From IMG/VR virus record IMGVR_UViG_3300035107_000641, positions 1 to 59,488 of that record: a stretch of 59,488 nucleotides of DNA. The stretch is one strand, 5' to 3'. The DNA comes from a virus (taxonomy: Duplodnaviria; Caudoviricetes). Positions 7,057-49,167 of this stretch are shown here, one piece after another; the first letter of the stretch is position 1, and each line of letters begins with the position of its first letter. Under the pieces are notes generated by a model. It did no database searches. It was not told where the DNA came from and saw only the letters and a program-made list of their open reading frames with translations. The position numbers and the translations under genes are program-made.

Positions 7057-7067
7057 CAGGTCCTCCC

Positions 7068-28057: not shown

Positions 28058-28888
28058 ATGCCGCCAGCCTTCACACCGCCTTTGTCATTGGCAGAAGTTC
28101 AAGCCGTTTTTGCTTCCGAAGGCATTCAGGTTGACGAGGTGTTGGGTTCAGGAGGGCAGGGAGCAGCGTTCAAAGCAACTGACAGTAAAACAAACAAGGT
28201 GGCTTTAAAGATTTACGGCCCGCAGACAACCCTCCCGAGAATTGAGGGGGAAATTGCCAAACTCCAAGAGCTCGATTCGCCCCATGTGGTCAAACTGTTT
28301 CAATCCGGCGACTGCCAACTCCGAAACTATCCGTTTCGTTGCCCGTATATAACACTCGAGTTTATCGATGGGCAGCCCTGCAATGAGTTGGTTGGCAGCA
28401 TAGCGAAAGAAACGGGGCAAAACCTTGACGCTGAAATATCAAAGCTCTTGTTAGATGTTGGTGATGGCCTTGATGTCATATGGTCAAAGAGGATTGTCCA
28501 CAGAGACATCAAACCCGCAAACATAATGAGATGCACTGATGGTTCGTATACCATTCTGGATTTCGGACTCGCCAAAGCTCCTGATGACGATTCAATCACG
28601 GCCACAGGGTTCGTAGTTGGTACTCCAGGATACATGTCCCCAGAACAAGCGCGAGGCGCGAGACGCCTCACGATTCGCTCAGACTTGTTTGCGCTTGGGA
28701 TCACCGCTTACTACATTGCATCAGGAGAACACCCATTCCACGGGTTCCAACACTTCATAGGAAGTGCTCGCCCCAAGCCACTCTGCGATGTTTGTGATGT
28801 AAGCCAGCGAACAGGAAGCGCCGTCGACTCCTTGCTAGAACTAGACAGAATGAACAGACCAACTTCAATCTCAAGCCTGTTAGGATAA
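28058..28888 (+). CDS. Hanks-type Ser/Thr protein kinase (catalytic domain only)
   Basis: LGSGGQG, VALK, HRDIKPANI, DFG, GTPGYMSPEQ, SDLFALG. Confidence 0.95.
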   Translation: MPPAFTPPLSLAEVQAVFASEGIQVDEVLGSGGQGAAFKATDSKTNKVALKIYGPQTTLPRIEGEIAKLQELDSPHVVKLFQSGDCQLRNYPFRCPYITLEFIDGQPCNELVGSIAKETGQNLDAEISKLLLDVGDGLDVIWSKRIVHRDIKPANIMRCTDGSYTILDFGLAKAPDDDSITATGFVVGTPGYMSPEQARGARRLTIRSDLFALGITAYYIASGEHPFHGFQHFIGSARPKPLCDVCDVSQRTGSAVDSLLELDRMNRPTSISSLLG

Positions 28889-28892
28889 AAAC

Positions 28893-30161
28893 ATGTTCTA
28901 CCTGAATGTAGGTTACCACTGGGACGTATTAAGAGAAGTCAAGGACGCCATAAGAGGCGCAATCTTTTGCGCCTCTACAATCGATATGGTTGCAGCACTA
29001 AGGAGAGAGTGCGCGTTGCCAAACAAAGTTTTATTTGATCCTCAGATGTATCTGCTGGACTACGAACTCGAGCCAGAGACTCACCTCTCACTCGTGAGAC
29101 GGCTTTGCACCTACAACTTCTTCGGAATAACAAGGCCTGAGTTCAATAGCAGTGAGCAGAACCAGTCGGAATACAAACAAGGTTTGTCCGAAAACCTAAA
29201 CGAGATCTGGAAGAATAAATCACCTCACGATCGCATATGGGGTGATTTGGTAGAAGCCGCAATCGCATTCCAAAAACTATTCGGCGTATCAAGTTATATT
29301 TTGCCATCAATCTTGATACGAGACCCAGAAGATAACTTGGATAGGTTCTTTAATCGGTTGGATGAGGCATCACAACACATACCAGATGACAAGCCTACGT
29401 ACATCTCGGTAGCGCTCAGTGAAGCCGCCATGGCTCATAAACCGGCCTCTGAAAACGAGCTGTTAGCATCCCTTGCAGATGAACTAACTGCGCGACCTGA
29501 GATCAAACATGTCTATATAGTTTTAGCATCAGAGTCTTCGAATAGCATTCGACACCTTAACCCAAATGCAATTGGTGGCTTTCTTGCTCTCACTAAGTTG
29601 CTTTCGGAAAACAAGATAGATGTTCTGGTGAACTTTGCTGAATCGCTCGGGATAGCTGCGTTAGGCTTTGGAGCTGGGGGTTACGGTGCAAGCTACTACA
29701 ATAAAGGAAGGGCGCTGAGGTTGTCTGACTTTGTAGAAACAAAAGGTCGCGGCGCTTACCCTAATTTCCATTCAACCCATTTGGCAGTCGATTTCGAAGC
29801 CGAAAACGATTTGGTGAAAGTTAGAGATTGCCATTTGTTGAAGTGCCTGAAAGACAGTTGGACTCCTGCTTCAAAAAATCTAAAAAAAGCTCTTGAAGCA
29901 GGGCAATCACCAGCAGTCATACCAGGTTGGGCCAGAACAAAGAACAACACTAAACTTGCTAGGATGCAATTTGCTCACGGACACAGCAAAATGGGGGACC
30001 GCAAATGGACTCCTTCAGATGTATTAGACTGGTTACAAAACGCTGAAATGATCACAGATTATATTGACAAAAAAACAAGCAACAATCCGATGTCATATAA
30101 GTTCAAAACAGCACATCTCAAGGTGTGGAGAAAGTCTGTTGAAGATCTGGTTAACTTGTAA
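28893..30161 (+). CDS. Uncharacterised alpha/beta (TIM-barrel-like) protein
   Basis: 422 aa, alternating strand/helix pattern, LFDPQMY motif; 4 bp after the kinase stop. Confidence 0.6.
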   Translation: MFYLNVGYHWDVLREVKDAIRGAIFCASTIDMVAALRRECALPNKVLFDPQMYLLDYELEPETHLSLVRRLCTYNFFGITRPEFNSSEQNQSEYKQGLSENLNEIWKNKSPHDRIWGDLVEAAIAFQKLFGVSSYILPSILIRDPEDNLDRFFNRLDEASQHIPDDKPTYISVALSEAAMAHKPASENELLASLADELTARPEIKHVYIVLASESSNSIRHLNPNAIGGFLALTKLLSENKIDVLVNFAESLGIAALGFGAGGYGASYYNKGRALRLSDFVETKGRGAYPNFHSTHLAVDFEAENDLVKVRDCHLLKCLKDSWTPASKNLKKALEAGQSPAVIPGWARTKNNTKLARMQFAHGHSKMGDRKWTPSDVLDWLQNAEMITDYIDKKTSNNPMSYKFKTAHLKVWRKSVEDLVNL

Positions 30162-30927
30162 ACCACTCGTCTTTTTGGTGGCGAGCCATGTCCCAAAGCA
30201 ATCTCAGCCTCATATTATTAATTTGGTCCCGCGCATTTTTGGTAGCGCGGGGTCGTACGAGTTTGAATATTCGACCTGACTGATCAAGTACCGCAAGTCC
30301 CAATCCTCTCTCTTTGCATTCCTTTCTCAGTTCGGAGTTTTCACGCTGCTCATCTGGCATTATAACCCAGGATCGATCTGACTTTTGTGCGTAAACAGCA
30401 GCTTGTATGATCGCTTGTCGCCAGTCATACAACTTGGCCTCAAACGCCACCACCTCAGATGGTAAGATGCAATGCCAATCACCAGCTGCCAACGCCATAC
30501 CTGATTCTGTTCTTGTAATCAGGTGATGGCGTTCCATCTTTCTGGTGATTTCTTTCACCTTATTTAGGTCGCTCCACGTTCTCGATGCCAAAGTCTCGGC
30601 CTTGAGAGGTCTGGGCACCAACTGCGCCATATAAAACAAGTCCGATTGTTTGACTTGTCTAAATGGCTTCAACCTTTTTTCACTGGGTGGAGGATTTTGA
30701 AATCTGGCCAAAACTATGTCAGCTATCCGACCACCGAAGTCGACTTCAAACCTATATTGAAAAGTGCCGGGTTGAAGCAGAAAGCTACCCAAATGAGGAA
30801 TGAAAGCTGTCACCAATTCTTTTTCGCTCAAAAAAGTCACGATTGAATCCAATGAGGGGCGGCAGAAGCTTTCAGATATGCTGTTTGGTTGTTCAGTGTA
30901 GGTCTTGCCTGCGCAAAACACAATCAT
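30151..30927 (-). CDS. PD-(D/E)XK nuclease-fold protein with inserted winged HTH
   Basis: FEVDFGGRIADIV ... wHTH ... AFEAKLYDWRQAIIQAAVY ... GLGL. Confidence 0.7.
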   Translation of the reverse strand: MIVFCAGKTYTEQPNSISESFCRPSLDSIVTFLSEKELVTAFIPHLGSFLLQPGTFQYRFEVDFGGRIADIVLARFQNPPPSEKRLKPFRQVKQSDLFYMAQLVPRPLKAETLASRTWSDLNKVKEITRKMERHHLITRTESGMALAAGDWHCILPSEVVAFEAKLYDWRQAIIQAAVYAQKSDRSWVIMPDEQRENSELRKECKERGLGLAVLDQSGRIFKLVRPRATKNARDQINNMRLRLLWDMARHQKDEWFTS

Positions 30928-32091: not shown

Positions 32092-32676
32092 ATGAGCGAT
32101 GAAAAGTCGTATCCCGATACTGAGAATGCGACGCCAACCAATAAAACCCCGAAAAGAGCGATGGTAAATGGCAAGCCTGTGCGTGTTGGGGAAGACTTGG
32201 ACGATGCCCATAGGGAACTGACTGAGTACTTCATGCAGATCAATGATGAAGCAGGAGTGTACGAAGCAAATCCGTTGATGAGCCAAATCCACGACAAATT
32301 AGAGCGATTGGCACACGAGGGCACTCCCAAGCGTATCGTACTCAGCCATCGTGGGTTGCTTGTTATGGGTTCTTGGTACCCAGAGCATCGTGCAGATGAA
32401 CTGTCCGAAGCAATGACCTCGGGTCGGTTTACGGAGACCTTTTCGACTGCTGACCAAGTCAACATTCTTATGCAAGGTTTTCATTCACTGGCAACCCAAG
32501 TTTTGCAAAACACGAATCATGCTCTCCGAACCGAGGATAGTGAAGATCGGCAAGATGCATGTGACACCGCCATTCGTCTTTTGCGAGTGATTGGCGATCA
32601 GGTTGATGCGCTTGTTCGTCAGGTTGATTTTGTTAAACAGGGACTCCACTTGGAGGACGAAGAGGGGGCAAAATGA
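32092..32676 (+). CDS. Hypothetical protein with degenerate DHp-like C-terminus
   Basis: MQGFHSLATQVLQNTNHAL resembles AHDFNNLLTAILGNTELAL with the His position as Gln. Confidence 0.5.
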   Translation: MSDEKSYPDTENATPTNKTPKRAMVNGKPVRVGEDLDDAHRELTEYFMQINDEAGVYEANPLMSQIHDKLERLAHEGTPKRIVLSHRGLLVMGSWYPEHRADELSEAMTSGRFTETFSTADQVNILMQGFHSLATQVLQNTNHALRTEDSEDRQDACDTAIRLLRVIGDQVDALVRQVDFVKQGLHLEDEEGAK

Positions 32677-33608
32677 AGGTTTTGAAAATTGCCATGTTCC
32701 TCATGTTCTGCATGGCGTTCTGCGGATGCGAAGGCGATAAACCTACAACTTGGATGGAAATCATCAGTCTCGGAGTAAGCATCTGCGCCGCTCTTGCGAG
32801 CGCGGTATCACTGTATTTCGCCGGCAGATCGGCGACTGCGGCGGAGACGTCTGCCAACGCCGCCAAAGAAACTGCACAGATTGAAAAGGATTGGTTGGAG
32901 AGGAATGTTAACATCTCACAAAATTATGTGGAACCAAGCGGACATGAAGTGCCAATTGGAGGTTTGGGTTTCAAGATATCAAACCCGCATCGTTCACTTG
33001 TTTGGGTTGAGGAACTTCGCGTGTGTTTCGGTGATGTGGTTTACGCCAAAAGTGACCAGGCAGATGGTTGTCTTACAATTTTGAGAGGTGGAGGCAGCGC
33101 GCGTGGTGCTCTCGGTCGGAGAATCGAAATGAGGAGCCTCGCCTTCCATAATCCCCCGTTTCTCTTACAACCAGAGGATCAGATCGAGGGCTTGTTTCAC
33201 CTCGATGCTATTCTTCCTCTGTTTTTAGAAAGTCTCGGCGAGATCAGTGAGTTTGCTCCGGTGATTGAGGCAAGAATAAGACACCGCGAAGGGTGGGTCA
33301 AAGGGGCTGCTCAAACTCTAAACCTTCGAGAATTGGCCAAGGCTTTAGAGGAATACGAAGCGACTCGAGAAGAACTCCAGCGGTCTGACTTGGCCAAGGA
33401 GTTGGCCAAAGAATTGAAGGGGGCCAAAAGCGGGTCGGCAATCAGCGAAAGACTTGAGCAGGTAATGGAGGAGCACGGTGCAGACGTTGGAGCTCTGGTT
33501 GTCAGGGCACTGAATGCTGCGAAGGCGGAGCCGGAAGAGGCCGCTATGACCGGGAGTGAATCAATAGCCGAGTATCTGGGTTCAAGAAATAGATCAAGCA
33601 ATGAGTAG
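32673..33608 (+). CDS. Membrane-anchored/lipoprotein moron
   Basis: Signal with FCGC, then a TM helix and SATAAETSANAA stretch. Confidence 0.65.
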   Translation: MKVLKIAMFLMFCMAFCGCEGDKPTTWMEIISLGVSICAALASAVSLYFAGRSATAAETSANAAKETAQIEKDWLERNVNISQNYVEPSGHEVPIGGLGFKISNPHRSLVWVEELRVCFGDVVYAKSDQADGCLTILRGGGSARGALGRRIEMRSLAFHNPPFLLQPEDQIEGLFHLDAILPLFLESLGEISEFAPVIEARIRHREGWVKGAAQTLNLRELAKALEEYEATREELQRSDLAKELAKELKGAKSGSAISERLEQVMEEHGADVGALVVRALNAAKAEPEEAAMTGSESIAEYLGSRNRSSNE

Positions 33609-33668
33609 CGAACAGCCAGTTTTCAGCCAGAACAAGAGCAGCGTTACGCGTCGAAGCCAACCCATCTT

Positions 33669-34103
33669 TCACTCCTTCTCGCGCTCGCGCTTCCACTGGT
33701 GCGCTCTCCCGCCCGCGTACCCGAGCACAAACACGCCGACGAGGATCACGAGCACCTTCTTCCAGGTCGGCCTACGCGCGAGCTCCTCGAGTTGTTTTCG
33801 CTGCTGCTCCTTCTGCGCGCCGCAGCTCATCGCCTCCCTGTGACAGGAGCGCTCCTTGAGCTCGAGCGCGCCCTCGAGCGCGCTGATCTCGCCCGCGCGA
33901 AACTCGGCGCACATGCTCGCGCGACGCATCGCACGCGCCGCGCACTCGCGCTCGGTCTCGCTCTCCTTGCAGCGGGTGGGCTCGCAGTTCTCAGTCGTTG
34001 GACGTGTCCCACCACTGGCTACCGGGGGGGACGCCCTTGTGGTCGCCGGGTGTGTCAGAAAGGTGGCCATCAGTGCGAATGTCATCAGGTGGCGGCGCGT
34101 CAT
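33669..34103 (-). CDS. Exported Cys-rich coiled-coil protein with C-terminal TM (spanin-like)
   Basis: Signal peptide, Cys residues, C-terminal hydrophobic helix; overlaps the upstream lysis gene by 113 nt. Confidence 0.45.
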   Translation of the reverse strand: MTRRHLMTFALMATFLTHPATTRASPPVASGGTRPTTENCEPTRCKESETERECAARAMRRASMCAEFRAGEISALEGALELKERSCHREAMSCGAQKEQQRKQLEELARRPTWKKVLVILVGVFVLGYAGGRAHQWKREREKE

Positions 34104-34419
34104 CGATTACCTCCGAGAGGTCTTTTGTGGGGGTGGGGGCGGGACGAAGAGGAGGCTTGACCTTGACCTCCGTGACAAGCCCCGGACCTGTCTCCTCCTC
34201 GAGCCCTTGCGGTTCACTCTTCTCATCTTCTTCTTTGCTTCCCCCCCTCTCCCACAGCTTCCCCCCGAGCAGGGCAGACAGCAGCGCGGCGAGCACGCCG
34301 AGGGCCTTGGCGAGCAGGGTCTTCCCCTGGATAAGCATCACGACCATCAAGGTCAGCGACACCAGGACGAGCCCGACGAGCGCCAGGTCACTCCAGGCCA
34401 GCAAGATCAACTCGTTCAT
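33991..34419 (-). CDS. Membrane protein in lysis cassette (spanin- or holin-like)
   Basis: Two N-terminal TM helices and an acidic Pro-rich tail. Confidence 0.5.
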   Translation of the reverse strand: MNELILLAWSDLALVGLVLVSLTLMVVMLIQGKTLLAKALGVLAALLSALLGGKLWERGGSKEEDEKSEPQGLEEETGPGLVTEVKVKPPLRPAPTPTKDLSEVIDDAPPPDDIRTDGHLSDTPGDHKGVPPGSQWWDTSND

Positions 34420-35330
34420 GGCGCGCTCTCCTTTTTCAAAAGCCTCGCCCACTCACAGCGCAGCGTGTCCACCAGGGGAGCCGAGGCGTCTTCGGTGATC
34501 TCGCCCTTGACCAAATAGCCCTTCGCGCCGAGCTCCAGCGCGCGCGCCCTCGTCTCCTCATCGCCCAGGCCCGACAGCACCCAGATCGTGAGGTCGGCCA
34601 GTTTCTTCTCCGCGCGCACTTGCTCGAGCACCTCGAGCCCGCTCATGTCCGGGAGTTCGAGATCGAGCAGCGTGATGTAAGGGCGCTCGAGCGCGCCCGA
34701 GCGCATCAGCGTCAAGGCTCCCACCCCTGTCTCGGCCACGGCGATCTTGTGCGCGACGTGGTGCCGCCGGAGGCTGCGCAGCAAGTGCTTGCGGTCGGCG
34801 CTGTTGTCCTCGACGAGCAGCACGTTTAGGGACGCGAGGTTTGTCACGAGGTCCTCCTCGCTCTGCGCGACGTCACTCGTGATCTCCTCGAGCGTGAGCG
34901 GCACGGGAATCCCCGGCATCGACTTCGAGCGCTTGCGCCCCGCGTCCGCCTTCTCCTCTTTCGTGTGCTTCTCGCGGTGCACCCGATCGAGGATGGCGCT
35001 GATCTGTTCGGGGTGCTCCTCGGCGAAGTAGAACCCGTCCAGCACGCGGTCATGCTCGCGCAAGATCTCATTGCGTTCGTCCTTGACCTCCTCGAGCTCC
35101 TGGCGAAGTTGCTCGATCTCAGCCTTGTGCTTGTCGCGATCCGTCTCGCACTTCTCCTTGTACGCGTCGCGCTCCTTGCGCAGCTCGGCGTTCTGCGTCG
35201 TCTCGCTCTCCTCGAGCTCCTTGACGCGTCCTCCGAGCAAGGCAAACAGCTTGTAGAAGAAGCCGGTGACCGCGAACATCACGCCGGCGATTCCCCCGAT
35301 CTTGGCCCCGTTAACGATCCAGTCGTCCAT
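34416..35330 (-). CDS. TM-coiled coil-receiver (REC) domain fusion
   Basis: N-terminal TM, coiled coil, then VLLVEDN, LLDLELPDMSG, VLSG, AKGYLVK. Confidence 0.9.
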   Translation of the reverse strand: MDDWIVNGAKIGGIAGVMFAVTGFFYKLFALLGGRVKELEESETTQNAELRKERDAYKEKCETDRDKHKAEIEQLRQELEEVKDERNEILREHDRVLDGFYFAEEHPEQISAILDRVHREKHTKEEKADAGRKRSKSMPGIPVPLTLEEITSDVAQSEEDLVTNLASLNVLLVEDNSADRKHLLRSLRRHHVAHKIAVAETGVGALTLMRSGALERPYITLLDLELPDMSGLEVLEQVRAEKKLADLTIWVLSGLGDEETRARALELGAKGYLVKGEITEDASAPLVDTLRCEWARLLKKESAP

Positions 35331-35754
35331 GGCGACCTCCGGTCTCTAGAGCATGCTCGAAGCAGGCAAACAACGCCGTCAGCATCGCGGTGCCGTACAT
35401 CGGCGTGGAGGTCAGTGACCAGGAGAGCGACCCGAAGGCCCACGCCACACAGGCCCACCAGGTCACGATGAGAAACAATGCTGGGATCTTGACCGGGTGG
35501 AGCTTGCGAAACAGGGAGACGAGCAAGAGCAACACCCCGAGCGCGAGCGCCAACCCGCCCGTCACGCGCGACCCGCCCACGAACAGGGTCCACGCATACA
35601 GCCTTGGAAACTGCACATCGAGCGGCGGGTGCGCCATGATCATCACTATCCCCCAGCCGACGAGCTGGATGATCAGGATCACATCCAGCGCGCGTAGGCG
35701 ATCCGGGGATCGGCGCATCCAAAAGAAGAGAAGTTTGGCGGCATACGCGCGCAT
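35311..35754 (-). CDS. Multi-TM membrane protein (holin-like)
   Basis: About four hydrophobic segments; downstream of endolysin. Confidence 0.55.
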   Translation of the reverse strand: MRAYAAKLLFFWMRRSPDRLRALDVILIIQLVGWGIVMIMAHPPLDVQFPRLYAWTLFVGGSRVTGGLALALGVLLLLVSLFRKLHPVKIPALFLIVTWWACVAWAFGSLSWSLTSTPMYGTAMLTALFACFEHALETGGRHGRLDR

Positions 35755-35769
35755 CTTTGACTCCCTCGT

Positions 35770-36051
35770 CTAGGGTTCGATTTTGGCCTCGGCATTCCCC
35801 GCCTTCACCGAGAGCCCCGCGTAGTGCTTGACCCCGAGCAGCGTGATCGTCCCGAAGCCCGCGAGCGCCGCGCCGATGGCGGCGACGTACACGAGCGGCT
35901 TCACGTCCGCGTCGAGCTGCGCTCCGAGGGCCGCGGCGAGCACCGCGCCAGCGGCCAGCAAGGCGATCAGTCCCCCGATGAGGATCAGGAAATAGCCAGC
36001 GCGCTCGTGCGCCTGGTCAAACGGCTTCTTGTCGTCTTCTTTTCGCGTCAT
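35770..36051 (-). CDS. Two-TM holin-like protein
   Basis: Two TM helices; ATGA-coupled to endolysin. Confidence 0.55.
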   Translation of the reverse strand: MTRKEDDKKPFDQAHERAGYFLILIGGLIALLAAGAVLAAALGAQLDADVKPLVYVAAIGAALAGFGTITLLGVKHYAGLSVKAGNAEAKIEP

Positions 36052-36686
36052 GCCTTCCACCTCGCTCCAAACAGGAAGGGGGAGTCAGGGCTACCCGGAT
36101 CCTTGCGCGCGCGCCGAAACACACGCACTGGCGCCGGGAAAGCGCCCACGTTCCCTTCGATCGTGTAAATCCATGCGTCGTCCACGGCTGCGATGACGCA
36201 GATGTGTCCTGACCAGTCGTTGTTCGGGTCTTTGTCTGCGTCCGGCCCGTCACGGTTGTTGACGAGCAGGTCATCCGGCGCGAGCTCGAAGGGATCCTCG
36301 ATCGCCGGATTCCCGCTCTCCTTGACGACCGCGAGGCCGAGGCGGCGCGCGCCGATCTTGTAGGGCGTGCCAGGGCCATACGCGCGCTCGAGCCAGGTGG
36401 ACGAGCTCCCCGCACACCACAGCCCCGGTCCTCCTCGCATGTAGCCTCGCACCCATGGTCCGTCATTGCGGGACCCTTCTTCCTGGGCGCCAGCGAGCAG
36501 GTCTTTAAGAGCTTCCTTCGCGATCGGCGTGGTGATCACGTCCGGGTCCAGGTAGCGCCCGCCTTTTGTCAGCTTGCCCGCGATGCCGTCCTCAGCGAGC
36601 GGGCGCCCGCGATGGTCAAAGCCCATGCGCTGCAAGATGGCGGTGTCCGTGATCCTCTTCGAGATCTCGGTGTAATCGATCAGCAT
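36048..36686 (-). CDS. Endolysin: PG-binding motif plus CHAP amidase
   Basis: LAEDGIAGKLT; WCAG, GHI, TIEGN; AAGGAGG SD. Confidence 0.8.
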   Translation of the reverse strand: MLIDYTEISKRITDTAILQRMGFDHRGRPLAEDGIAGKLTKGGRYLDPDVITTPIAKEALKDLLAGAQEEGSRNDGPWVRGYMRGGPGLWCAGSSSTWLERAYGPGTPYKIGARRLGLAVVKESGNPAIEDPFELAPDDLLVNNRDGPDADKDPNNDWSGHICVIAAVDDAWIYTIEGNVGAFPAPVRVFRRARKDPGSPDSPFLFGARWKA

Positions 36687-36708
36687 GATGCCCTCCTTGG
36701 AGCAGGCG

Positions 36709-37356
36709 TTATTCGATAAGTGCGCGCGCAGCTGCTCGCCCGGTCCCGAGCGCGGACAGAATCGCGGAACGATCTGCGCCAGTCGCATCGAGGTGTGCGT
36801 CGATCGCTGCGAAAATCTCGTCCTCGAAAGCAGCGTCGATCGCTGCGGTGCCGGTTTGCCCACCCGCTGTCGGCTGTGCCTCAGCCCAGGTGGTGAGCGC
36901 TTGTGTTGCCACGAGTTCGGTGGCCTCTGCCGCGTCCTGCTCGTCGAAGTCTTCGACAGGCACGAGGCCAAACTCACTGAGCGCCCACGCCTGCATCGCG
37001 CCCTCGAGCGCTGGCGACCACTCGCCCGCAACGATCCGGGTGATGACGCCCCAGGCCGCGACCATGTCACCCGCGCGCGTGATGGTCTGGTGGGTGCCAA
37101 ACTCGGAGAGGTCCTCGGTGTCTGTGAGGTCGGAGTACTCCGCTGCCACTCGGACGGAGCCAGGGAGCAGCGGCGCGATCACGGGCCTGGCGCTCGTCGA
37201 GAGCGCCCAGTGCGTGACCGGGCCAGCGGCGCTTTGCCCGTATGGCGCGAGGAAGCGACCAGCGGTCGCGTACACCCCGAGCCGGATCCCTGCGTTGGCG
37301 CGCTCGCGCCTGCCAAGCTCGATGAGCCCGCCGAGTCTGTACGTCCAGTCTGTCAT
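36709..37356 (-). CDS. Tail-region hypothetical protein
   Basis: Coupled ORF at the end of the tail module. Confidence 0.55.
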   Translation of the reverse strand: MTDWTYRLGGLIELGRRERANAGIRLGVYATAGRFLAPYGQSAAGPVTHWALSTSARPVIAPLLPGSVRVAAEYSDLTDTEDLSEFGTHQTITRAGDMVAAWGVITRIVAGEWSPALEGAMQAWALSEFGLVPVEDFDEQDAAEATELVATQALTTWAEAQPTAGGQTGTAAIDAAFEDEIFAAIDAHLDATGADRSAILSALGTGRAAARALIE

Positions 37357-38168
37357 TCCACCACCGCCGTGAGGCCGGTCTGTGCTTCCAGCCATTCTTC
37401 GAGTTGTGTGATTTCTTCAGGGGTGATCGTGTCATCGGCCACGATCTGACCGACGAGGTAGCCGGAGGACCTGTTTGACCCGGACCACGATCGGCCCATC
37501 GTGTCGAAGGGGCCTTCGTGGCTTCCCGCCGCGAGCGCGTGCGGCTCGATGTCGAGCTCGACGCCTGCGCCATACTGACGAGCCTCACCTGAGACGAAGT
37601 CGCCGCGACCCACGGCGCCGCTCACGTCGGTGTACCCGGCGCCCGAGCCGAGCAGTGACCTGACCTCGACCCCGCCGCGCGTGATGCGATGGCTATGCGA
37701 GCCTCCCTCGATGCGGTACCAGTAGCCCTTGTTGTTGACGTCGTTGCCGCCGTTGTGGTCGTAGAGCATGCCTCCGTTTTGCCCGAGCGTGACGCACCAA
37801 AGGTGGTAGTAGCCAAGCGTCAGCGCAGCGCTGTACACGTCATCGCCGTCGAAATATGCCGCGGGCAAATCGCCGAGGATCTCCTCACGATAGAGCGCGC
37901 GCTCGGACGTGATGATCTGGCGCACCTCCTGACCCGCCTTCCACTCGGTCAGGTACTCGAGCGGCTCGTTGTCGAGGATGCCCTCGTTCTGCGCGTACGC
38001 GCGCGCGCTCGATGGCGCGCTGGCTGGTGTGGCCTCCCAGGGGAGCCAGTACATCAGCAGCACGCTCTCGAGAGAGAGCGGCGTCCACGCCTCCTCGACG
38101 GAGCCACGGTGATCGCGAAACCCTCCCCGCAGGCCGCGCTTGAACTCTGGGCGGCGAAACGACCTCAT
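37353..38168 (-). CDS. Tail fiber-associated protein, LamG/ConA-like
   Basis: LPAAYFDGDD and C-terminal EEITQLEEWL pattern. Confidence 0.5.
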   Translation of the reverse strand: MRSFRRPEFKRGLRGGFRDHRGSVEEAWTPLSLESVLLMYWLPWEATPASAPSSARAYAQNEGILDNEPLEYLTEWKAGQEVRQIITSERALYREEILGDLPAAYFDGDDVYSAALTLGYYHLWCVTLGQNGGMLYDHNGGNDVNNKGYWYRIEGGSHSHRITRGGVEVRSLLGSGAGYTDVSGAVGRGDFVSGEARQYGAGVELDIEPHALAAGSHEGPFDTMGRSWSGSNRSSGYLVGQIVADDTITPEEITQLEEWLEAQTGLTAVVE

Positions 38169-38494
38169 CCGTTGCCAACCCTCGTGAGTAACACGATCAC
38201 GGTGACGGACGCGCCAGTTGCGGCGCGGCGAAGGTAGAGCGGGAGCGTGCGCACGTACGTGCCCGCCGTGTAGAGGTCGGGGTCGCCCGCAGACGCTGGG
38301 ATCGTGCGGTAGTTTGTATCCGAGGCGCTATCGGTGCTTTGCAGGAGCACGTCAGCGCTTCGGCCTGGCTCGAGCTCGACGAGCCATTTACTGCGCTTGT
38401 GCGTGGTCTCGGGCACCTCGATGCGCTTGACGGGGTCGCCATCGGTCATCGTGATGCTAAGACGCACGGGCGCCTGTCCGCTGGATGTCGTCAT
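38165..38494 (-). CDS. Tail-region hypothetical protein
   Basis: 109 aa beta-rich ORF with AAGGAG SD. Confidence 0.55.
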   Translation of the reverse strand: MTTSSGQAPVRLSITMTDGDPVKRIEVPETTHKRSKWLVELEPGRSADVLLQSTDSASDTNYRTIPASAGDPDLYTAGTYVRTLPLYLRRAATGASVTVIVLLTRVGNG

Positions 38495-38506
38495 CGTCTT
38501 CTCTCC

Positions 38507-39373
38507 TTAAGGGGTCGTGCCCTTGTTCCAGAGCGCGACCATCCTGGTGTTGCTGCTCGCGTCGTTGAGCCTGAGCCAGCCCTGATTGCTGGCCGTCGAT
38601 GGGGGTACACCGAGCGGCGCGGCGTCAGCGCCTCCGTCCACGCGGATGTAGTTGAGCTCGCCGACCGAGGGGTCACTGGTGGAAGAGGGTGACCCCGAAT
38701 CTCCAGCGAGGATGTCGATCGCAGCGAATCGCCGGTTGCCTGACGTGTCCGAGACGTTGGCGGGGCTTGTAAACGTGAAAGGAAGCCAGACGTCCTCACC
38801 CATGCGAATCACGCAGTGGCTGTTCGCAGAGTTTACGCATCCCCAATCGCCCACGCCGCTCCCTGGCGCCTCGTTCGGGAGGTAGGCAAGGATCCCCCAG
38901 CCATCGATGAAGACCTCCTCATCGCTCGCCAGGTCCATCACGCCGATGCGTCCTACGTGCGAGCAGTAGCGCTGGAACGCATCGCCGGTGTCCTTGACGT
39001 AGAACAGGACGGCGTCACCGTATTGCGCGAACCCGCACGCGGTCGAAATCCCTGTGGGGGAGGCGGGGATGAAGACGAGCTCGGGGGAGGCGTTTGTCGG
39101 CGAGCCTGGCGCCGACGAGTCCGCGATGGTGCCGTCCGGGTCGATCATGACGAGGATCGCGCCGCCGCTGATGCGAAAGTTCACCTGGCGCCCGGAAGAG
39201 TGCGTGGCGGTGAAAGACGTCACCGCGGAGGGGCCTCCCACCACGCTGGAGAGCGTGAAGCCGCCGACTTGCGTGGAGAAGAAGTCGTAGAGGCGCTGCA
39301 TCAAGTCGTTGATGGTCGTGCCCGCTGCTGCCCCGGACAGCGCGTTTGGGATCGTTGGGTTGGATACCGCCAT
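38507..39373 (-). CDS. Virion structural/tail fiber protein
   Basis: S/T/G-rich, beta-rich, located in tail module. Confidence 0.55.
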   Translation of the reverse strand: MAVSNPTIPNALSGAAAGTTINDLMQRLYDFFSTQVGGFTLSSVVGGPSAVTSFTATHSSGRQVNFRISGGAILVMIDPDGTIADSSAPGSPTNASPELVFIPASPTGISTACGFAQYGDAVLFYVKDTGDAFQRYCSHVGRIGVMDLASDEEVFIDGWGILAYLPNEAPGSGVGDWGCVNSANSHCVIRMGEDVWLPFTFTSPANVSDTSGNRRFAAIDILAGDSGSPSSTSDPSVGELNYIRVDGGADAAPLGVPPSTASNQGWLRLNDASSNTRMVALWNKGTTP

Positions 39374-39386
39374 GGGTCATGCCTCT

Positions 39387-39578
39387 CTAGTAGTCGTCCG
39401 CGATCGAGATCGCGTTGTCAGGTGCACCGTCCCAGACCCGGATCTCGTACTCCGGTGAGAATGGTGGCTCGAGCTCCATGGTGGTGTAGTCGTCCGCGAT
39501 CACGATGCGCTGATCGGGGACGACCTCTTCAACCTTTGGCGCGCGCCTTGGCGCGATGCGTCGCGAGGAGAGCTTCAT
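39387..39578 (-). CDS. Small hypothetical protein
   Basis: ATGA coupling. Confidence 0.5.
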   Translation of the reverse strand: MKLSSRRIAPRRAPKVEEVVPDQRIVIADDYTTMELEPPFSPEYEIRVWDGAPDNAISIADDY

Positions 39579-40306
39579 GTCTCCACCTCCAGCACACCCA
39601 CGCCATAGACCTCATAGACGCGCCCGTCTGTCGCGGTGAGTTCCAGGTAGCCTCGCTTCGCGCCCGAGACCACGTAGCGATCGAACTGGCTGAGCGTAAG
39701 GTCCTCGAACGCTTCTCCTGGCACGATCCCCCACCCCCACGACCACTCGACCCACAGCCTGTAGGACACCGTCGTCGCGTCCCGTTCGTAGGTCACAGCC
39801 CCCGAGCCACCACCTGTCACCGTGCCCGCGCCCGTCCAGGCCGAGTCGATCCCCCCGAGCAGGTCGAGGCGCACCGCCGAGATGTCGTTGTTCTCGTCGT
39901 ACTCGTAGACTTTCTGAGGCTCGACCTTGGTCGATGGAGTGCCCGCCTCATTGCTCCCGATGGCAGCAACAAGGGCGTCGATTACGTCCTCGATGGTGTC
40001 GCCAGGATCAGGCGTGACGTCGTAGTTGCTCCCGTTGAGCGTGACGCGGTAGGTCGTCGCCTCGTCGAGCGTGGTGATATAAAACGACCCGTCCGAGTGG
40101 CGCGGCTTCTTCGAGAGCCGCACGCCAGCGATCATGAGGATCGGCTTGCTATCGAGGCCATCCTCGAGGCTCACCCCCTCGCCATCGTCGCCCGTCTGGT
40201 AGGGCGCACCGTTGACGGCGAGGCGCTTGACCAGAAACGCTTCGAGCTCGCGCCCGAGCGAGAGCATTTGCCCCTCGCGGATTTTGGAGATGCTCGGCGT
40301 GGTCAT
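39575..40306 (-). CDS. Virion structural protein
   Basis: MTTPSISK...; contains the insertion-like unit also seen in sheath and decoration proteins. Confidence 0.6.
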   Translation of the reverse strand: MTTPSISKIREGQMLSLGRELEAFLVKRLAVNGAPYQTGDDGEGVSLEDGLDSKPILMIAGVRLSKKPRHSDGSFYITTLDEATTYRVTLNGSNYDVTPDPGDTIEDVIDALVAAIGSNEAGTPSTKVEPQKVYEYDENNDISAVRLDLLGGIDSAWTGAGTVTGGGSGAVTYERDATTVSYRLWVEWSWGWGIVPGEAFEDLTLSQFDRYVVSGAKRGYLELTATDGRVYEVYGVGVLEVET

Positions 40307-41631
40307 CGATCCCTCGTCATCAAGAGGCCAAACTTCTGCCCGCGCGCGCTGGCGGGAATCTTCGTCAGCAGCTGCACGCGGTGCGTGGTGTAGAGCCGTC
40401 GGATCTGCGGGTTGCCCGCAGAGGTCGTGTCCGACCACAGGTGTAAGCCGTCGCTAAACAGCTCGCCAAAGGCCGTGTTCGTCGAGGGGTAGTTGCCCGT
40501 GCGCTGCCAGGCGAGCGAGAGATCATCCACCCGGTAGGCGTAGAGCTCGATCGTCGCGGCTGCGCCGCCGCCATCTCCGACGAGCACATAGACGTACTCA
40601 TCATCGACGGCGAACATGTAGTCGGTCTTTGTGCCATCGACCGTGATGGAGGCGAACTCGGCGCCACCCCGATTGTAAAAGCCCGCGAGCACCAAGCCCG
40701 AAGAGGGGGAGGGGTTGTAGACGACGAAGATCTTCCCGTTCGAGACAAGCAGGTTGCGTACGTTGTAGGTGGCGGTCGAATGCGCGCACGTCGCGAGCAG
40801 CGTGGTCCCTGTCTCGTCATAGACAAAGACCTCCTCGTTCAGACCATCACCCACATAGACGTGCTGCTCGTCGATATCGAACCCGGTGGGGCTGTCGGTC
40901 GTCCCATAGGAGAGCAGTTCGAGATCTGTGGAGGTGCCATCAGCGAGTGCGATGCGCGTGACGTCGTGCGTGTCGGTCGCGTTCGCCGTGCGCGCGACCC
41001 AGGCGTAGGTGTGCCCCACGCGCACGCGTCGAATCAAGGCGCTGGCCGCCGTCGAAGAGATGGTGACGGTCGAGACCTCCGACCCGTCCGAGAGGTCGAT
41101 CAGCGTGACCTTCCCCTCGTCCGCCCCCGAGTCCGTGCCCGCGATGACGAGGTAGCCGCCGTTGGTGCCGAGGCGCTCGATCGTGCCCGCGCCCCAGCCA
41201 GGGTCATAGGTGATGCCCGTGTCGCTGCCATCGAGCAGGTCCCACTTCTTCACCTCGAACCCGTTGATCGCGTAGTAGTAGCGCCCGTCTGTGCACGCGC
41301 CCGAGACCTGCGAGCTCACGCCGAGGTTGATCGAGTTTGGGGAGGCTGCGACCTGGAGCCCGGCGCGAGCGCCGCTCGTTTTCTCCACCACGCGCACCGT
41401 CTGCCAGTCCTGCGCGCCAGCGATCGCGTTCGCCACCGAGGTGTGTTCTACCATCAGCGTTTCGTAAAACGCGCGCACCCAAAGACCAAGGAGGTTAAAC
41501 AGGTAGTTCAACCATCCATTGGGGACTTTTTCTCGATCTCGCAGGCCAAGTTCCTTCTTGGCTTGTGCTGGCTCTACAAGATCAGCAGCGCCATCGGTTC
41601 CCCAGTCCGCAAAGTCGTCGGGATAAGACAT
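40303..41631 (-). CDS. Tail fiber/receptor-binding protein with beta-propeller-like repeats
   Basis: N-terminal EP...KKELG...P..WLNYLFN fiber anchor motif; repeated D..YVY beta units. Confidence 0.7.
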   Translation of the reverse strand: MSYPDDFADWGTDGAADLVEPAQAKKELGLRDREKVPNGWLNYLFNLLGLWVRAFYETLMVEHTSVANAIAGAQDWQTVRVVEKTSGARAGLQVAASPNSINLGVSSQVSGACTDGRYYYAINGFEVKKWDLLDGSDTGITYDPGWGAGTIERLGTNGGYLVIAGTDSGADEGKVTLIDLSDGSEVSTVTISSTAASALIRRVRVGHTYAWVARTANATDTHDVTRIALADGTSTDLELLSYGTTDSPTGFDIDEQHVYVGDGLNEEVFVYDETGTTLLATCAHSTATYNVRNLLVSNGKIFVVYNPSPSSGLVLAGFYNRGGAEFASITVDGTKTDYMFAVDDEYVYVLVGDGGGAAATIELYAYRVDDLSLAWQRTGNYPSTNTAFGELFSDGLHLWSDTTSAGNPQIRRLYTTHRVQLLTKIPASARGQKFGLLMTRDR

Positions 41632-41640
41632 CTGAGCCTC

Positions 41641-42213
41641 TCAATAAACAGTAGACAGCGCGCCATCGTCGAACCCTTCAGCGTCCGGGTCTTCGATAAA
41701 GCCGAGGTAGTTTGGCGGTGCTTCGATCAGTTGAATGTTTGTGCCTGGTGGCGTGCTCGCTTTGACAATGGCTTTGAGTTGAGTTCGAAGCGCCAGCGGC
41801 CTCGCCTCTCCCTCGACGACATAGGTGATGATCACGGCTCGTCTCAGGCTTTCGAACTCGAGGTATCCTATTGGTACTCGGGTCCCTGCTGAGACGATTT
41901 CGAGGAGCCGATCGATGTGGCCACTCCCAGACATCGAAAGCGCGGCGGCCTTGAGCAAAGCTCGATAATCGAGATCACCAAGCCCCTGGCGCTCAGGCCC
42001 GAGCGTGCGTCCAGCGCTATCGAGCTGCGCACCGCTCGCGCCGTCCAGCGCGCGCGAGACCCAGACATCGAAGAGAGCGTCCTCGAGCTCTTGTACCTCG
42101 TTGTTCAGCACACGCGTGAGCGCGAGCAGATTGGGCTCCTCACGTTGCCATCCAGGCAAGCTCTCGATGGCTTGCTCGGAGTGGTCCGGGATATGTCCGT
42201 AATCGGGGCTCAT
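41641..42213 (-). CDS. Baseplate wedge protein (DUF2612/gp48-like)
   Basis: LDGASGAQLD..GR..G..R.GL.D.DYR motif following baseplate J. Confidence 0.8.
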   Translation of the reverse strand: MSPDYGHIPDHSEQAIESLPGWQREEPNLLALTRVLNNEVQELEDALFDVWVSRALDGASGAQLDSAGRTLGPERQGLGDLDYRALLKAAALSMSGSGHIDRLLEIVSAGTRVPIGYLEFESLRRAVIITYVVEGEARPLALRTQLKAIVKASTPPGTNIQLIEAPPNYLGFIEDPDAEGFDDGALSTVY

Positions 42214-43409
42214 GATGTCACCACGCTTTTCGTGACGCGCGAGAGATCAAAGCGTGCGATCTGATTGGCCGTGATCGCAAAGTCCGACGCGGAGGGCGTG
42301 GGGGTGGGGGTAGTCGAGAAGAAAGCTGCGACATTGTTCACCCCACGCACCTCGTCTCCAACCGCCTCGAGGCGAAAGCCCACGACGTCTTGCGAGACTT
42401 CGAGCAGGTTGCCCCGCGACACGACGAGCTCGGCGATCTGGTCTCCGGCGTTCGTGGGTGCGTCTGGTCCCACGAGGATGATCAGGTGGACATACAACTC
42501 CACCGCCTCGACCCATGACCACTTCACCGAGTGTTCGCGTCCGTTGGCAGCGATGACGAGTTTCTCGACGTCGCCAGCGTAGGGACTTCCTCCTGGCTCT
42601 TCGCGGTAGAGGATTTCGGCGATCGCGGCGAGCTCATCCGGGTCAGTGAGTTCGGGATAGATCTGGACGGCGAGTTCACCAGGTTGGAGCAACGCGCCCG
42701 TTGTCGGGTTCGTCCAAACGTCGCTCTCTCGGTTGCCTCTGTTGTTCACAGCTGCCGCGTATTGGATCAACGGGTTGGCGAGCAAAGACGCTTCGATCGA
42801 GTCCTCGAGACGATGCCCGAGCGCACGCCTTGTTGCTTCGAAGCGTTGGCGGTATGCCGCGTCGTCTTCGACGTCGGTGCCAGGCGTGGCGGCGCTTGCG
42901 TTGGTGACGCTGATGTGCCCTGGGACAAAGCCAGCGAGCGCATCGATCTTCCCTGCGCCGACCTGGATGGGGCCTGTATCGAGAGTGATCAGCGGGATGC
43001 TCGCCGTCCCCGAGACGCCGACGGTGACGGACTCGGTGGAGATCAAGTCCACGCCGAGCTCGCTCGCGCGAAAGCTCGAGCCCTGGGGATAGGTCGTCCC
43101 GTCTTCTGCCGTGACCGTGACTGTCGATGGCGTGGCGACGAGGCGACCCCCGATGTAGGGGTAGAAGAGGTTCTCGAGAGACTTCCCGACCGCTGCTTGT
43201 GCGTCGTTTGATTTGGAGACGCCCTCGGCGGCTTGCCACGCGAGGTCGAGCTGCGCGGCGAAGGGGTCGATCAGCTTGCTGAACGCGCTCCGTGGTTCGA
43301 GGTCGAGGTCCTCGCCAAAGGCCGCGCGCATCCCACCACGGAGATCCTCTCGGATGTCCTCGAGACGCTTACGGCGAAAACCATTGAGGGTGAGACCGTA
43401 GGCTGGCAT
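42210..43409 (-). CDS. Baseplate J/gp47-like protein
   Basis: YGLT..GFRRKRL, VTN...ATPGTDVEDDAAYRQR. Confidence 0.85.
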   Translation of the reverse strand: MPAYGLTLNGFRRKRLEDIREDLRGGMRAAFGEDLDLEPRSAFSKLIDPFAAQLDLAWQAAEGVSKSNDAQAAVGKSLENLFYPYIGGRLVATPSTVTVTAEDGTTYPQGSSFRASELGVDLISTESVTVGVSGTASIPLITLDTGPIQVGAGKIDALAGFVPGHISVTNASAATPGTDVEDDAAYRQRFEATRRALGHRLEDSIEASLLANPLIQYAAAVNNRGNRESDVWTNPTTGALLQPGELAVQIYPELTDPDELAAIAEILYREEPGGSPYAGDVEKLVIAANGREHSVKWSWVEAVELYVHLIILVGPDAPTNAGDQIAELVVSRGNLLEVSQDVVGFRLEAVGDEVRGVNNVAAFFSTTPTPTPSASDFAITANQIARFDLSRVTKSVVTS

Positions 43410-43825
43410 CAGACACCTCCGAGCGGATCGAGCAGAAGCATGAACTCTCCGTCGTCGAGCCCGAGCGTCGCGCCGATCGCGGACTCCTCGGTCTCACCCG
43501 TGGCTGGGTCAGTGAAGACAAAGGCGTGCGCGATCGACAGCGTGCGCTCCACGAGCTCGCCGCGCACCGCGCGCACGTTGCTCACGCCAGGCAAGCCCGC
43601 GAGCTTCGAGCCGAAGAGGACGGTGAGCGCTGAGATGTCGGGGGACTTGATGAGGACCTGGCCAAACCAGTCGATGCCATGCGTGACATCGAACTTCCAC
43701 TCCCCGAGCACGGCCATCACCTCCTCGCGGTACTGCTGACGCACGAGGTCAAGGCCAGTGACCAATACAAGATCACCAGCCTCGATTTTAATGTCGCCTG
43801 TCTCGGTGAGCGCGAGGTCTCGCAA
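43409..43825 (-). CDS. Baseplate gp25/gp46-like protein
   Basis: DLAL..TGD...GDLVLV.G...GEWKFD...GIDW. Confidence 0.75.
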   Translation of the reverse strand: MRDLALTETGDIKIEAGDLVLVTGLDLVRQQYREEVMAVLGEWKFDVTHGIDWFGQVLIKSPDISALTVLFGSKLAGLPGVSNVRAVRGELVERTLSIAHAFVFTDPATGETEESAIGATLGLDDGEFMLLLDPLGGV

Positions 43826-43965
43826 GGTGCATGCTGCGCGCCTCCTGGCGCGCGCTGGGGGTCCAGGTTCGTCCTAGATAGTGCCCCCACGCTGAACAAA
43901 CGTCAAGTTCCGCACGTCGAAGGCTTTTGGTAGGGTGTCGCAGATAGTAAGCGGAAGGAGGAGTC

Positions 43966-44556
43966 ATGCGCGCGTGGTGGAAAAGGTGGGTGCTCGTAGG
44001 GATATTGCTGGTGGGTTGTGGGGATCCTGAGCCTGCGACGAATTCGAACGAGGGCGACATGGGGTCGGAGGAGTCATGCACCATCGGCACCAAACGAACA
44101 GGGTGCACCTGTGACCAGGGAACCATCGGTTACAACACATGTACTGACCAAGGGTGGGGATCTGCCTGCTTTTGCCACGCGTGCAGTCCTGGCGAGAAGA
44201 AGGAAGAGTGCACGTGTGAAACGACGTCAGGGCACCCGGCTGGGTATCAGGTGTGCACCGATGATTATGAATGGGGTGAGGAGTGCCTGTGCGTTGGTGA
44301 TCAGCCTGTCGGTACACCTTGCGATGACAAGCTCGAATGCACGTCGAACTCCACCGTTCAACCTGACGGAAGTTGCCGTGATGACAACACCTCGTCTGCA
44401 TGTGATGACCAGGTGAATTTGGACTGTGCGACCACTTCTTGCTCGGAAGATGATGGCTGCACATTCCACCCCAAAAGGGAGGGGCTCAGTTGCAATGAAA
44501 GCGACCCTTCGACCATCGGTTGGACATGTTCAGCTGGTGAATGCGTCGCGCCTTAG
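43966..44556 (+). CDS. Cys-rich lipoprotein moron
   Basis: Lipobox LVGC; repeated C..G....C.C...G...C....W..C.C units; AGGAGG SD; opposite strand. Confidence 0.8.
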   Translation: MRAWWKRWVLVGILLVGCGDPEPATNSNEGDMGSEESCTIGTKRTGCTCDQGTIGYNTCTDQGWGSACFCHACSPGEKKEECTCETTSGHPAGYQVCTDDYEWGEECLCVGDQPVGTPCDDKLECTSNSTVQPDGSCRDDNTSSACDDQVNLDCATTSCSEDDGCTFHPKREGLSCNESDPSTIGWTCSAGECVAP

Positions 44557-48997: not shown

Positions 48998-49157
48998 AAA
49001 AGCATGTGAGCGCTCAGGCGCGGGCACCTTGAGCGATACGATTCGCCAAGCACTCGTCGTCTATGATGTGCTCTTGGAAGCGACGAGTTCTGGGAAGGAG
49101 TTGGTCCTCAAAGGAGAAGACGGTTCAGAGCAGCCTGTTTACCTTGCATTCAAGTAA
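48936..49157 (+). CDS. Ribbon-helix-helix (CopG-like) protein (cassette 2)
   Basis: DIRVNLRLSKEVKDRLEKAC....TLSDTIRQAL. Confidence 0.8.
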   Translation: MGKKDIRVNLRLSKEVKDRLEKACERSGAGTLSDTIRQALVVYDVLLEATSSGKELVLKGEDGSEQPVYLAFK

Positions 49158-49167
49158 GAGGAGTAGC

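Follow-up and report, generated by a model that had tools for sequence, protein, structure and literature searches.

The virus record IMGVR_UViG_3300035107_000641 of IMG/VR (59,488 bases; the window, analysed here over its whole length) carries on its minus strand, from 34416 to 35330, a gene for a 304-residue protein made up of a transmembrane (TM) anchor, a long helix with a coiled-coil segment, a linker and a response-regulator receiver domain (REC). The gene stands in a block of overlapping, co-directional genes that begins with a putative cell wall hydrolase. On these features we tentatively regard the product as an accessory, phospho-switchable regulator of lysis timing, of the antiholin or LysA-LysB kind and not as an essential lysis protein, a reading in which our confidence stays somewhat below even.

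The gene, proposed in a preliminary description of this DNA, is real: its frame is open from an ATG preceded 5 nt upstream by a Shine-Dalgarno GGAGG, the G+C content of its third codon positions (GC3) is 0.89 and resembles that of the phage backbone, and its product matches the REC family of Pfam. Its start overlaps the last 20 nt of an upstream gene for a four-TM protein (35311 to 35754), and its TGA stop shares the motif ATGA with the ATG that follows it. Because of the latter overlap, the next gene most likely starts at 34419 and not at the GTG at 34452.

The membrane anchor corresponds to codons 11 to 34 (35229 to 35300, minus strand; IGGIAGVMFAVTGFFYKLFALLGG) and is a single hydrophobic segment. 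The sole hydrophobic window of the protein covers residues 13 to 33, with a Kyte-Doolittle hydropathy of 1.90, and bears out the N-terminal TM helix described previously. It is flanked by MDDWIVNGAK on the N-terminal side and by a stretch beginning RVKELEE on the C-terminal side. The N side carries one Lys or Arg and the C side two (three with K27), the C flank is net acidic, and the topology predicted from flank charge is ambiguous. A coiled coil had also been described for the following part. This is upheld for about 40 residues, where a heptad pattern is found (residues 65 to 104), and not for residues 35 to 58, which form a highly charged helix without clear heptad: the heptad score of residues 65 to 104 was matched by 38 of 2000 shuffled sequences, that of residues 35 to 104 in a single register by 689 of 2000. 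The coiled-coil segment was delimited by the shuffle test and the AlphaFold2 helix to codons 59 to 104 (35019 to 35156, minus strand). The AlphaFold2 model, which was built on a two-row alignment, predicts one helix that runs unbroken over residues 2 to 105 (predicted local distance difference test, pLDDT, block means of 74 to 92 over residues 11 to 80 and of 71 over residues 81 to 90), and further a helix (107 to 130), a disordered stretch (131 to 146), another helix (147 to 167) and a low-confidence REC domain.

The REC core (34503 to 34823, minus strand) was detected with PF00072 at 62.9 bits in a six-frame search of the phage and, in the protein itself, at E=1.7e-16 and 60.8 bits against a cut-off of 30.2 (residues 170 to 276); among solved structures it comes closest to single-domain regulators of the CheY/Rcp type (best E=1.9e-12). 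The REC protein, 120 listed homologues and 28 viral open reading frames (ORFs) supplied 173 REC domain instances for an alignment. The residues E174 (34809-34811), D175 (34806-34808), D223 (34662-34664; the phospho-acceptor), S253 (34572-34574), Y272 and K275 (34506-34508), all encoded on the minus strand, fall in its canonical columns. With PF00072 above cut-off and every catalytic position present, the receiver domain is intact, as had been noticed before. The residue after the conserved Lys is the sole unusual one: it is Gly, as in 18 of the 173 instances, and is Pro in 130 of them. Matches of the REC protein obtained with padloc (E 8e-4 to 8e-3), involving the coiled-coil or REC parts of LeoBC, PDC-M60B, SduA and JetC, were dismissed as composition or domain noise.

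No HATPase_c or HisKA match at E<=1 was found across the 59.5-kb genome (Hpt lay outside the search), whereas the same search detected these domains in 14 and 13, respectively, of 14 control genomes. The earlier statement that no complete histidine kinase is encoded thus holds genome-wide for both domains, and in these terms the REC gene does not belong to a paired two-component system with its kinase encoded nearby. A six-frame search of the whole phage genome found no second REC. With no kinase encoded by the phage, any phosphoryl donor must be the host's. The myxobacterial type of host suggested in the preliminary description received no support. The public sequencing runs that contain this DNA carry marine or seawater metagenome labels, and four with a small share of it are labelled, in coded form, as single organisms.

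The block to which the REC gene belongs consists of six co-directional genes on the minus strand, defined by GC3 phase and Shine-Dalgarno sites. Its first gene (36048 to 36686) encodes a candidate endolysin of 212 residues, a putative CHAP-type cysteine peptidase/amidase with an N-terminal peptidoglycan-binding-like part and without signal or signal-arrest-release sequence; AAGGAGG stands 6 nt before its ATG at 36686. It is the one gene of the block with a lead to its function, and the evidence for its identity is transitive. The Pfam CHAP model, with a 26-bit cut-off, matches the protein itself below cut-off (E=0.046, 14.7 bits), likewise its 81%-identical orthologue L002 (E=1.6e-4, 22.5 bits), and above cut-off a 32%-identical homologue in L003 (E=1.3e-7, 32.5 bits), for which PHROG endolysin families gave matches at 5e-8 as well. 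By Atlas features, 10 of the 10 best family-bearing matches are CHAP clusters with or without PG_binding_1, mostly viral, with a score of 0.95. The AlphaFold2 model of the candidate endolysin, again from a two-row alignment, was unusable (pLDDT 31). As a CHAP-type hydrolase without a signal sequence, the enzyme would require a holin. The next gene (35770 to 36060) overlaps the endolysin stop by 13 nt and codes for a 96-residue protein with two TM helices predicted by hydropathy (residues 19 to 51 and 55 to 77) and charged ends, which is class-II-holin-like by features only. It is followed by the gene of the 147-residue protein with four TM segments by hydropathy, which is positionally like LysA of phage P2. 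In the Atlas, this protein is grouped with mostly viral clusters of 143 to 149-residue membrane proteins without Pfam family (430, 2274 and 199 members; score 0.94), and its structure resembles four-helix DoxX-like bundles, with template-modelling scores of 0.6 to 0.66.

Downstream of the REC gene, the gene from 33991 to 34419 encodes a 142-residue protein with two TM helices and a conserved acidic and proline-rich tail (...TDGHLSDTPGDH.GVPPGS.WWDTSN). Its family comprises four proteins of 137 to 142 residues, the three others being 79%, 70% and 62% identical to it. This tail motif is nearly invariant in all four members. The last gene of the block (33669 to 34103) encodes a protein of 144 residues with a signal-like N-terminus (MTRRHLMTFALMATFL), a helical part with six Cys, a C-terminal TM segment and a basic tail; having no lipobox, it is not a lipoprotein, and it matches no family of Pfam, PHROG or NCBIfam. 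It begins with MTRRHLM..., which resembles a twin-arginine signal. The 142- and 144-residue proteins are conserved lysis-module partners.

None of the membrane proteins of the block is called a holin or spanin by any Pfam, PHROG or NCBIfam model. A lipobox scan of all minus-strand frames from 33000 to 36700 gave two pattern matches, both lacking a hydrophobic leader; as this region contains no credible lipoprotein ORF on the strand, no o-spanin partner is present there. Inside the block, no promoter-like site was found on the gene strand. The single same-strand terminator-like site (35265-35247, in the REC gene) is attributable to chance, since three were found in the scanned region and 3.0 were expected from shuffled sequences. 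Because the late operon ends with a signal-less wall hydrolase and, after it, overlapping genes for small membrane proteins, it is reasonable to read the block as a putative lysis cassette. The REC gene had been placed inside such a cassette in the preliminary description, and this context is supported insofar as the intact gene overlaps both neighbours in a co-directional block that starts with a CHAP-type hydrolase. The label of spanin-like for the downstream genes is not sustained, as they show neither lipobox nor spanin family match. The REC protein is membrane-associated and encoded in the cassette, as antiholins are, the identity of the cassette itself being given by the CHAP-type hydrolase and the holin-like genes recognised by their features. 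A complex prediction of residues 1 to 130 of the REC protein with the four-TM and 96-residue proteins scored 0.00, which speaks neither for nor against binding.

Homologues of the REC protein were searched in 5.8 billion clustered proteins, giving 333 matches at E<=0.001. Among the 120 matches listed, only one (P0001, encoded on a contig of 60,052 bases) is full-length, with 90% identity, and the others cover the REC part only (30 to 58% of the query). The closest REC relatives in this list, 39 to 40% identical, have no membrane anchor and are of the multi-receiver or CheY-like kind. When residues 1 to 165 alone were used as query, P0001 was the only match among 330 candidates. It keeps the anchor unchanged and all catalytic residues, its changes are mostly conservative, and the gene following REC in its genome is 79% identical to the one in the phage, below the 90% of REC itself. 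In GenBank phages, tblastn with the REC protein retrieved nine records, all with REC-only similarity over at most 51% of the query and unannotated, and neither megablast of 33000 to 45000 nor tblastn of the endolysin found relatives. The REC protein found no relative in viral_contigs, nor did the four-TM protein and the 144-residue gene in scans of the same collection; a scan with the alignment of the 142-residue family was likewise blank. The alignments of the endolysin and the holin-like protein found none in metagenome_contigs and genome_contigs, a weak blank, since only N-terminal patterns were used.

Two relatives of the phage show that the position of the REC gene is variable. The provirus G001 matches 12 of the 56 proteins of the window by tblastn, namely a replication/integrase module (89 to 100% identity), the endolysin (81%) and the 96-residue protein (84% by tblastn, 85% in the alignment). 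No match was found by tblastn in G001 for the structural genes (head, tail and baseplate), the four-TM gene, the REC gene and the two genes downstream of it; the record ends after the slot gene. The mosaicism between the two is strong. The region of the phage from 11179 to 25670, compared with G001 (L004-L006), has in common the integrase (99.5%), the UvrD helicase (99%), RecT and neighbouring genes. Directly after its 96-residue gene, G001 carries an ORF with a TM segment and a helix that runs to the end of the record. Because a 73%-identical relative of this ORF, P0125, is 98 residues long, the G001 slot gene encodes a short TM-helix protein; in viral_contigs, P0125 itself found G001 and nothing else. 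The second relative was found when contigs of four runs were aligned on 33000 to 37500. A 49,614-base contig of run X3 covers 36028-37463, 35858-35892 and 33635-34302 (the last with 41 differences and 12 gaps) and jumps from 35858 to 34302, thus skipping 1555 bases, with 944 other letters in between. The replaceable segment (34303 to 35857) begins in the 3' end of the 96-residue gene, takes in the four-TM and REC genes and extends ~39 codons into the 142-residue gene, and the relative retains the endolysin, the holin-like gene, the 142-residue gene from codon 40 and the 144-residue gene. The REC gene is an accessory gene in a variable slot of a conserved module.

A degenerate-pattern scan of IMG/VR with the REC alignment yielded 227 pattern matches, of which 28 were confirmed as REC loci. 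In 24 of these the REC ORF lacks a hydrophobic window, and in L011 the window lies inside the REC domain. L033, L034 and L035 encode one identical protein of 281 residues, in which two hydrophobic helices at the N-terminus are followed by a helical region of about 80 residues and, at the C-terminus, a REC that matches PF00072 at 1.8e-13 and shows the same E-D/D/S-G/K-G pattern as the REC of the lysis block. The two REC domains are 31% identical and the N-terminal parts unrelated. In L035 the gene follows a terminase fragment and is flanked on one side by genes for GerE-type helix-turn-helix and immunoglobulin-like proteins, and on the other by a virion structural protein gene (phrog_3287). HATPase_c was not found in the L033-L035 records, which are incomplete. 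Since this family is unrelated to the present one, phages have acquired membrane-tethered receivers repeatedly, outside lysis modules too. The preliminary description had tied such a protein to lysis genes; among the 28 loci, the sole other TM-helix-REC family lies outside a lysis cassette, which goes against this tie, and the phospho-acceptor Asp is kept in both members of the REC protein family, as the proposed switch demands. In L035 (3467 to 5390, and likewise in L033 and L034), the REC gene lies two genes after that of a stand-alone GerE/LuxR-type helix-turn-helix protein (PF00196, 1.5e-16), and the pair looks like a split NarL-type regulator with a membrane-tethered receiver half.

In the mechanism that we propose, the short acidic N-terminus would lie outside, with the helix and REC in the cytoplasm. 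A cytoplasmic C-terminus is expected because the conserved phospho-chemistry needs cytoplasmic donors; the short acidic N-tail is consistent with it, as is the side bearing R35/K37 (and K27), the charge count taken alone being equivocal. The heptad segment would form a dimer or oligomer at the inner membrane, and D223 would be phosphorylated by host histidine kinases or acetyl phosphate. The resulting rearrangement of REC might then be relayed via the helix to the anchor, where a change could alter the assembly of the holin-type proteins, that is, the 96-residue two-TM, the four-TM or the 142-residue two-TM protein. Gating of lysis by host phosphorylation is a plausible hypothesis. That an antiholin-type regulator would itself be a two-component receiver, reading the host's kinase or acetyl-phosphate state (energy or envelope state) at the membrane and turning it into earlier or later holin triggering, is a more specific proposal, which we consider rather unlikely. 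The lysis-timing reading is favoured by the 90% identity to the sole listed homologue, with catalytic residues and anchor kept, and by the 20-nt and ATGA overlaps in a block devoid of promoter-like sites. A TM-helix protein moreover belongs at this slot position, as G001 has one right after its holin-like gene. The intact REC in a phage without its own kinase, a leading hydrolase that would need a holin, the parallel in gene order with P2 LysA and LysB and, weakly, PHROG matches of residues 1 to 100 to families of TM-helix phage proteins also speak for it.

Several observations weigh against a role in lysis timing. One relative has other DNA in place of the segment with the REC gene and its four-TM neighbour and keeps the flanking lysis-type genes, so that the lysis module works without the REC gene. 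Only two near-identical members of the REC protein are known among the matches listed, hence no co-variation could be followed, and the L035 analogue lies in a head/packaging region and not among lysis genes. Searches with Pfam, PHROG and NCBIfam models and BLASTP against P2 proteins revealed no homology to a characterised holin, antiholin or spanin. Residues 1 to 100 match ~100-residue TM-helix families of PHROG (phrog_1009, 1.4e-4; phrog_7330, 4.6e-4; phrog_11860, 7.9e-4) and Rz-like spanins of the same database (phrog_6197, 0.006; phrog_739, 0.079), and P0125 matches phrog_739 at 0.02; these matches are weak, composition-prone and only suggestive. The flank charges are ambiguous as to topology. 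Finally, contigs of a metatranscriptome (run X8) lie on 36169-37020 with short pieces elsewhere and none on the REC gene, which is no evidence of silence; RNA libraries may also contain DNA.

Instead of timing lysis, the tethered REC could serve as a sink or decoy that drains, competes for or binds the phosphoryl flow of host kinases and thereby blunts a late two-component response, the lysis locus being a convenient late variable slot. This is the main rival reading and a serious one, possible if doubtful. It would account for an orphan REC in a phage with neither a HATPase_c/HisKA kinase nor an output domain, for its location in a replaceable slot and for the independent lineage with two TM segments, helix and REC outside a lysis cassette, which suggests that tethered RECs have a function independent of lysis. 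PHROG contains families of REC-only proteins (phrog_731, E=7.6e-18), the closest REC relatives among the matches listed are multi-REC or CheY-like, and phages have been reported to interfere with host two-component systems (PIT4; PMC10714779). Against a sink stands the close interlocking of the gene with its lysis-type membrane neighbours upstream and downstream; it would have no need of a 90-residue helix, very late expression would leave scant time for a transcriptional response of the host to matter, and a relative has a REC-less TM-helix protein at the same position. The REC protein could also be a derivative of an i-spanin of the Rz/LysB type, oriented N-in and C-out, in which a periplasmic REC fold would act as a non-phosphorylated interaction module. 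The position of an N-terminal TM and helix after holin-like and multi-TM genes, as for P2 LysB, the weak Rz-like PHROG matches of residues 1 to 100 and of P0125, and the net acidic C flank of the anchor all point in this direction. We nevertheless hold such a derivative to be improbable, given that no lipobox ORF for an o-spanin partner exists in 33000 to 36700 and that all five phospho-chemistry residues, which a periplasmic scaffold would not need, are kept in both members. In addition, the acidic N-terminus is unlike the usual basic N-termini of N-in anchors, and the two-helix hairpin and basic N-terminus of the L035 analogue are read as putting its REC in the cytoplasm.

A temperate phage with an integrase might also express the gene during lysogeny, for instance for superinfection exclusion or modulation of host behaviour, from a prophage signal of its own. 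The slot is variable, and next to the block lies a low-GC island that encodes a PD-T4-6-like defence kinase, as would suit such a gene, yet its GC3 of 0.89 is that of the backbone and not of the island, no promoter-like site occurs on its strand within the block, and its start and stop overlap neighbouring late genes; there is little chance that this explanation applies. Neutral or decaying cargo without function would agree with the existence of only two members among the matches listed. It is a very improbable explanation for an open frame with a Shine-Dalgarno site, backbone codon bias and an intact active site, of which the homologue is 90% identical with mostly conservative changes, the neighbouring gene reaching only 79%. 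We therefore retain, tentatively, the accessory lysis-timing regulator as our preferred reading.

The phage itself is a complete temperate genome of the myovirus type. The window is a whole IMG/VR virus record with direct terminal repeats at its ends, and the assignment follows from the combination of an integrase with sheath, tape measure and baseplate genes and with capsid, portal and terminase genes. The structural genes encode a major capsid protein, portal, small terminase, tail sheath, tape measure and baseplate hub and wedge proteins; RecT, a UvrD-type helicase and a tyrosine integrase are encoded as well. No tRNA gene was found in the whole window. The G+C content is ~63%; islands of low G+C lie at 28-33.6 kb and at 46-50 kb. 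The first contains a Ser/Thr protein kinase gene (28058-28888; Pfam Pkinase, 6e-32) that matches models of the PD-T4-6 anti-phage defence kinase (best E=6.8e-45) and is followed by two genes without family match, 28893-30161 on the plus and 30151-30927 on the minus strand. These three genes (28058-30927) have ~47-50% GC against the 63% of the phage and are probably a prophage-borne defence island adjoining the lysis block. At the end of this island, a plus-strand ORF of 311 codons (32673-33608) has a lipoprotein-like leader (…MAFCGCEGDK) and a further hydrophobic stretch, and no Pfam or padloc match. The second island (~52% GC) splits the baseplate/tail operon between 45976 and 50154. It contains the plus-strand ORFs 46961-47962 and 49063-50151, neither with a padloc match, the former also without a match in Pfam, which was run on that ORF only. 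The portal ORF (4732-7089, minus strand) matches Phage_portal_3 at 1.7e-56 (residues 92 to 462) and, in its C-terminal part, 2_5_RNA_ligase2 at 6.9e-9 (residues 636 to 742), a 2',5'-RNA-ligase/LigT-like phosphoesterase domain; if the ORF is one gene, this portal-LigT-like fusion would be unusual.

The timing of lysis is a main fitness trait of phages and is known to respond to holin concentration, to membrane potential and, in T4 and N4, to superinfection. If the REC protein does act on it, a receiver in the lysis module would let two-component or acetyl-phosphate signals of the host feed directly into the lysis decision, and if it is of the antiholin type, phages would, given the second, unrelated TM-helix-REC family, have evolved membrane-tethered receivers tapping host phospho-signalling more than once. 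If it is a sink, it would give the phage a compact tool with which host signalling is silenced at the membrane. The value of these considerations is limited by the probably uncultured marine host, by the two near-identical members and by a credible rival explanation outside lysis.

Compared with known systems, the REC domain has the same fold and catalytic residues as CheY and Rcp1/RcpA (5ic5, 6xvu and 5brj; E 1.9e-12 to 7.5e-9, residues 167 to 296). In contrast to these regulators, the protein is phage-encoded, has 165 additional N-terminal residues with the anchor and the long helix, carries Gly instead of Pro after the conserved Lys, and has no cognate kinase nearby as judged by the HATPase_c/HisKA search. 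No equivalog was found among NCBIfam regulators, the best match being EpsW with 53 bits against a cut-off of 200. The lysis genes of phage P2 (AF063097) are those of the holin Y, the endolysin K, LysA (141 residues, several hydrophobic windows), LysB (141 residues, N-terminal TM) and LysC, and according to the record LysA and LysB are not essential but influence when lysis occurs. The order of a holin-like protein, a multi-TM protein of ~145 residues and a helical protein with an N-terminal TM in the phage block parallels LysA followed by LysB, but no sequence similarity was found (all BLASTP E>=0.15) and none of the P2 proteins contains a REC. LysB has an overlapping lipoprotein partner, LysC, whereas the lipobox scan found none in the phage block. 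The architecture of an i-spanin, an N-terminal TM followed by a helical or coiled-coil domain, is present in the REC protein, which has, besides the faint Rz-like matches in PHROG, no NCBIfam or Pfam match to a spanin family and no similarity to LysB.

Lambda S107 and T4 RI and RIII are membrane or membrane-associated regulators of lysis time encoded in lysis cassettes. The REC protein resembles these antiholins and N4 gp62 insofar as they are small membrane or membrane-associated proteins of the cassette that set the time of lysis, but none of them is known to have a two-component receiver. In N4, gp62 and the cytoplasmic part of the pinholin gp63 are the proposed recipients of a cytoplasmic signal (PMC12642591). 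The "Receiver domain" named in that report is the authors' term for a stretch of gp63 and was rejected as a REC. Two-component phosphorylation is linked to holin/antiholin-like membrane proteins in the LytSR-LrgAB/CidAB systems of Firmicutes (PMC4830213); there the regulator is a cellular, cytoplasmic, DNA-binding protein acting on transcription, whereas the phage REC protein has no output domain and is itself anchored in the membrane. The cREC domains of jumbo phages (PMC7824862) are divergent receivers tied to NAD+/ADP-ribose enzymes outside histidine-kinase systems; the REC described here is, in contrast, classical by its Pfam and PDB matches and linked to membrane proteins. Literature searches, with subscription journals outside their coverage, turned up neither a receiver protein in the lysis cassette of a phage nor a response regulator anchored in the membrane, and thus no counterpart of the output-less membrane-anchored receivers found here in two unrelated phage lineages. 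The domain is known; the TM-helix-REC architecture and the lysis-block context are new.

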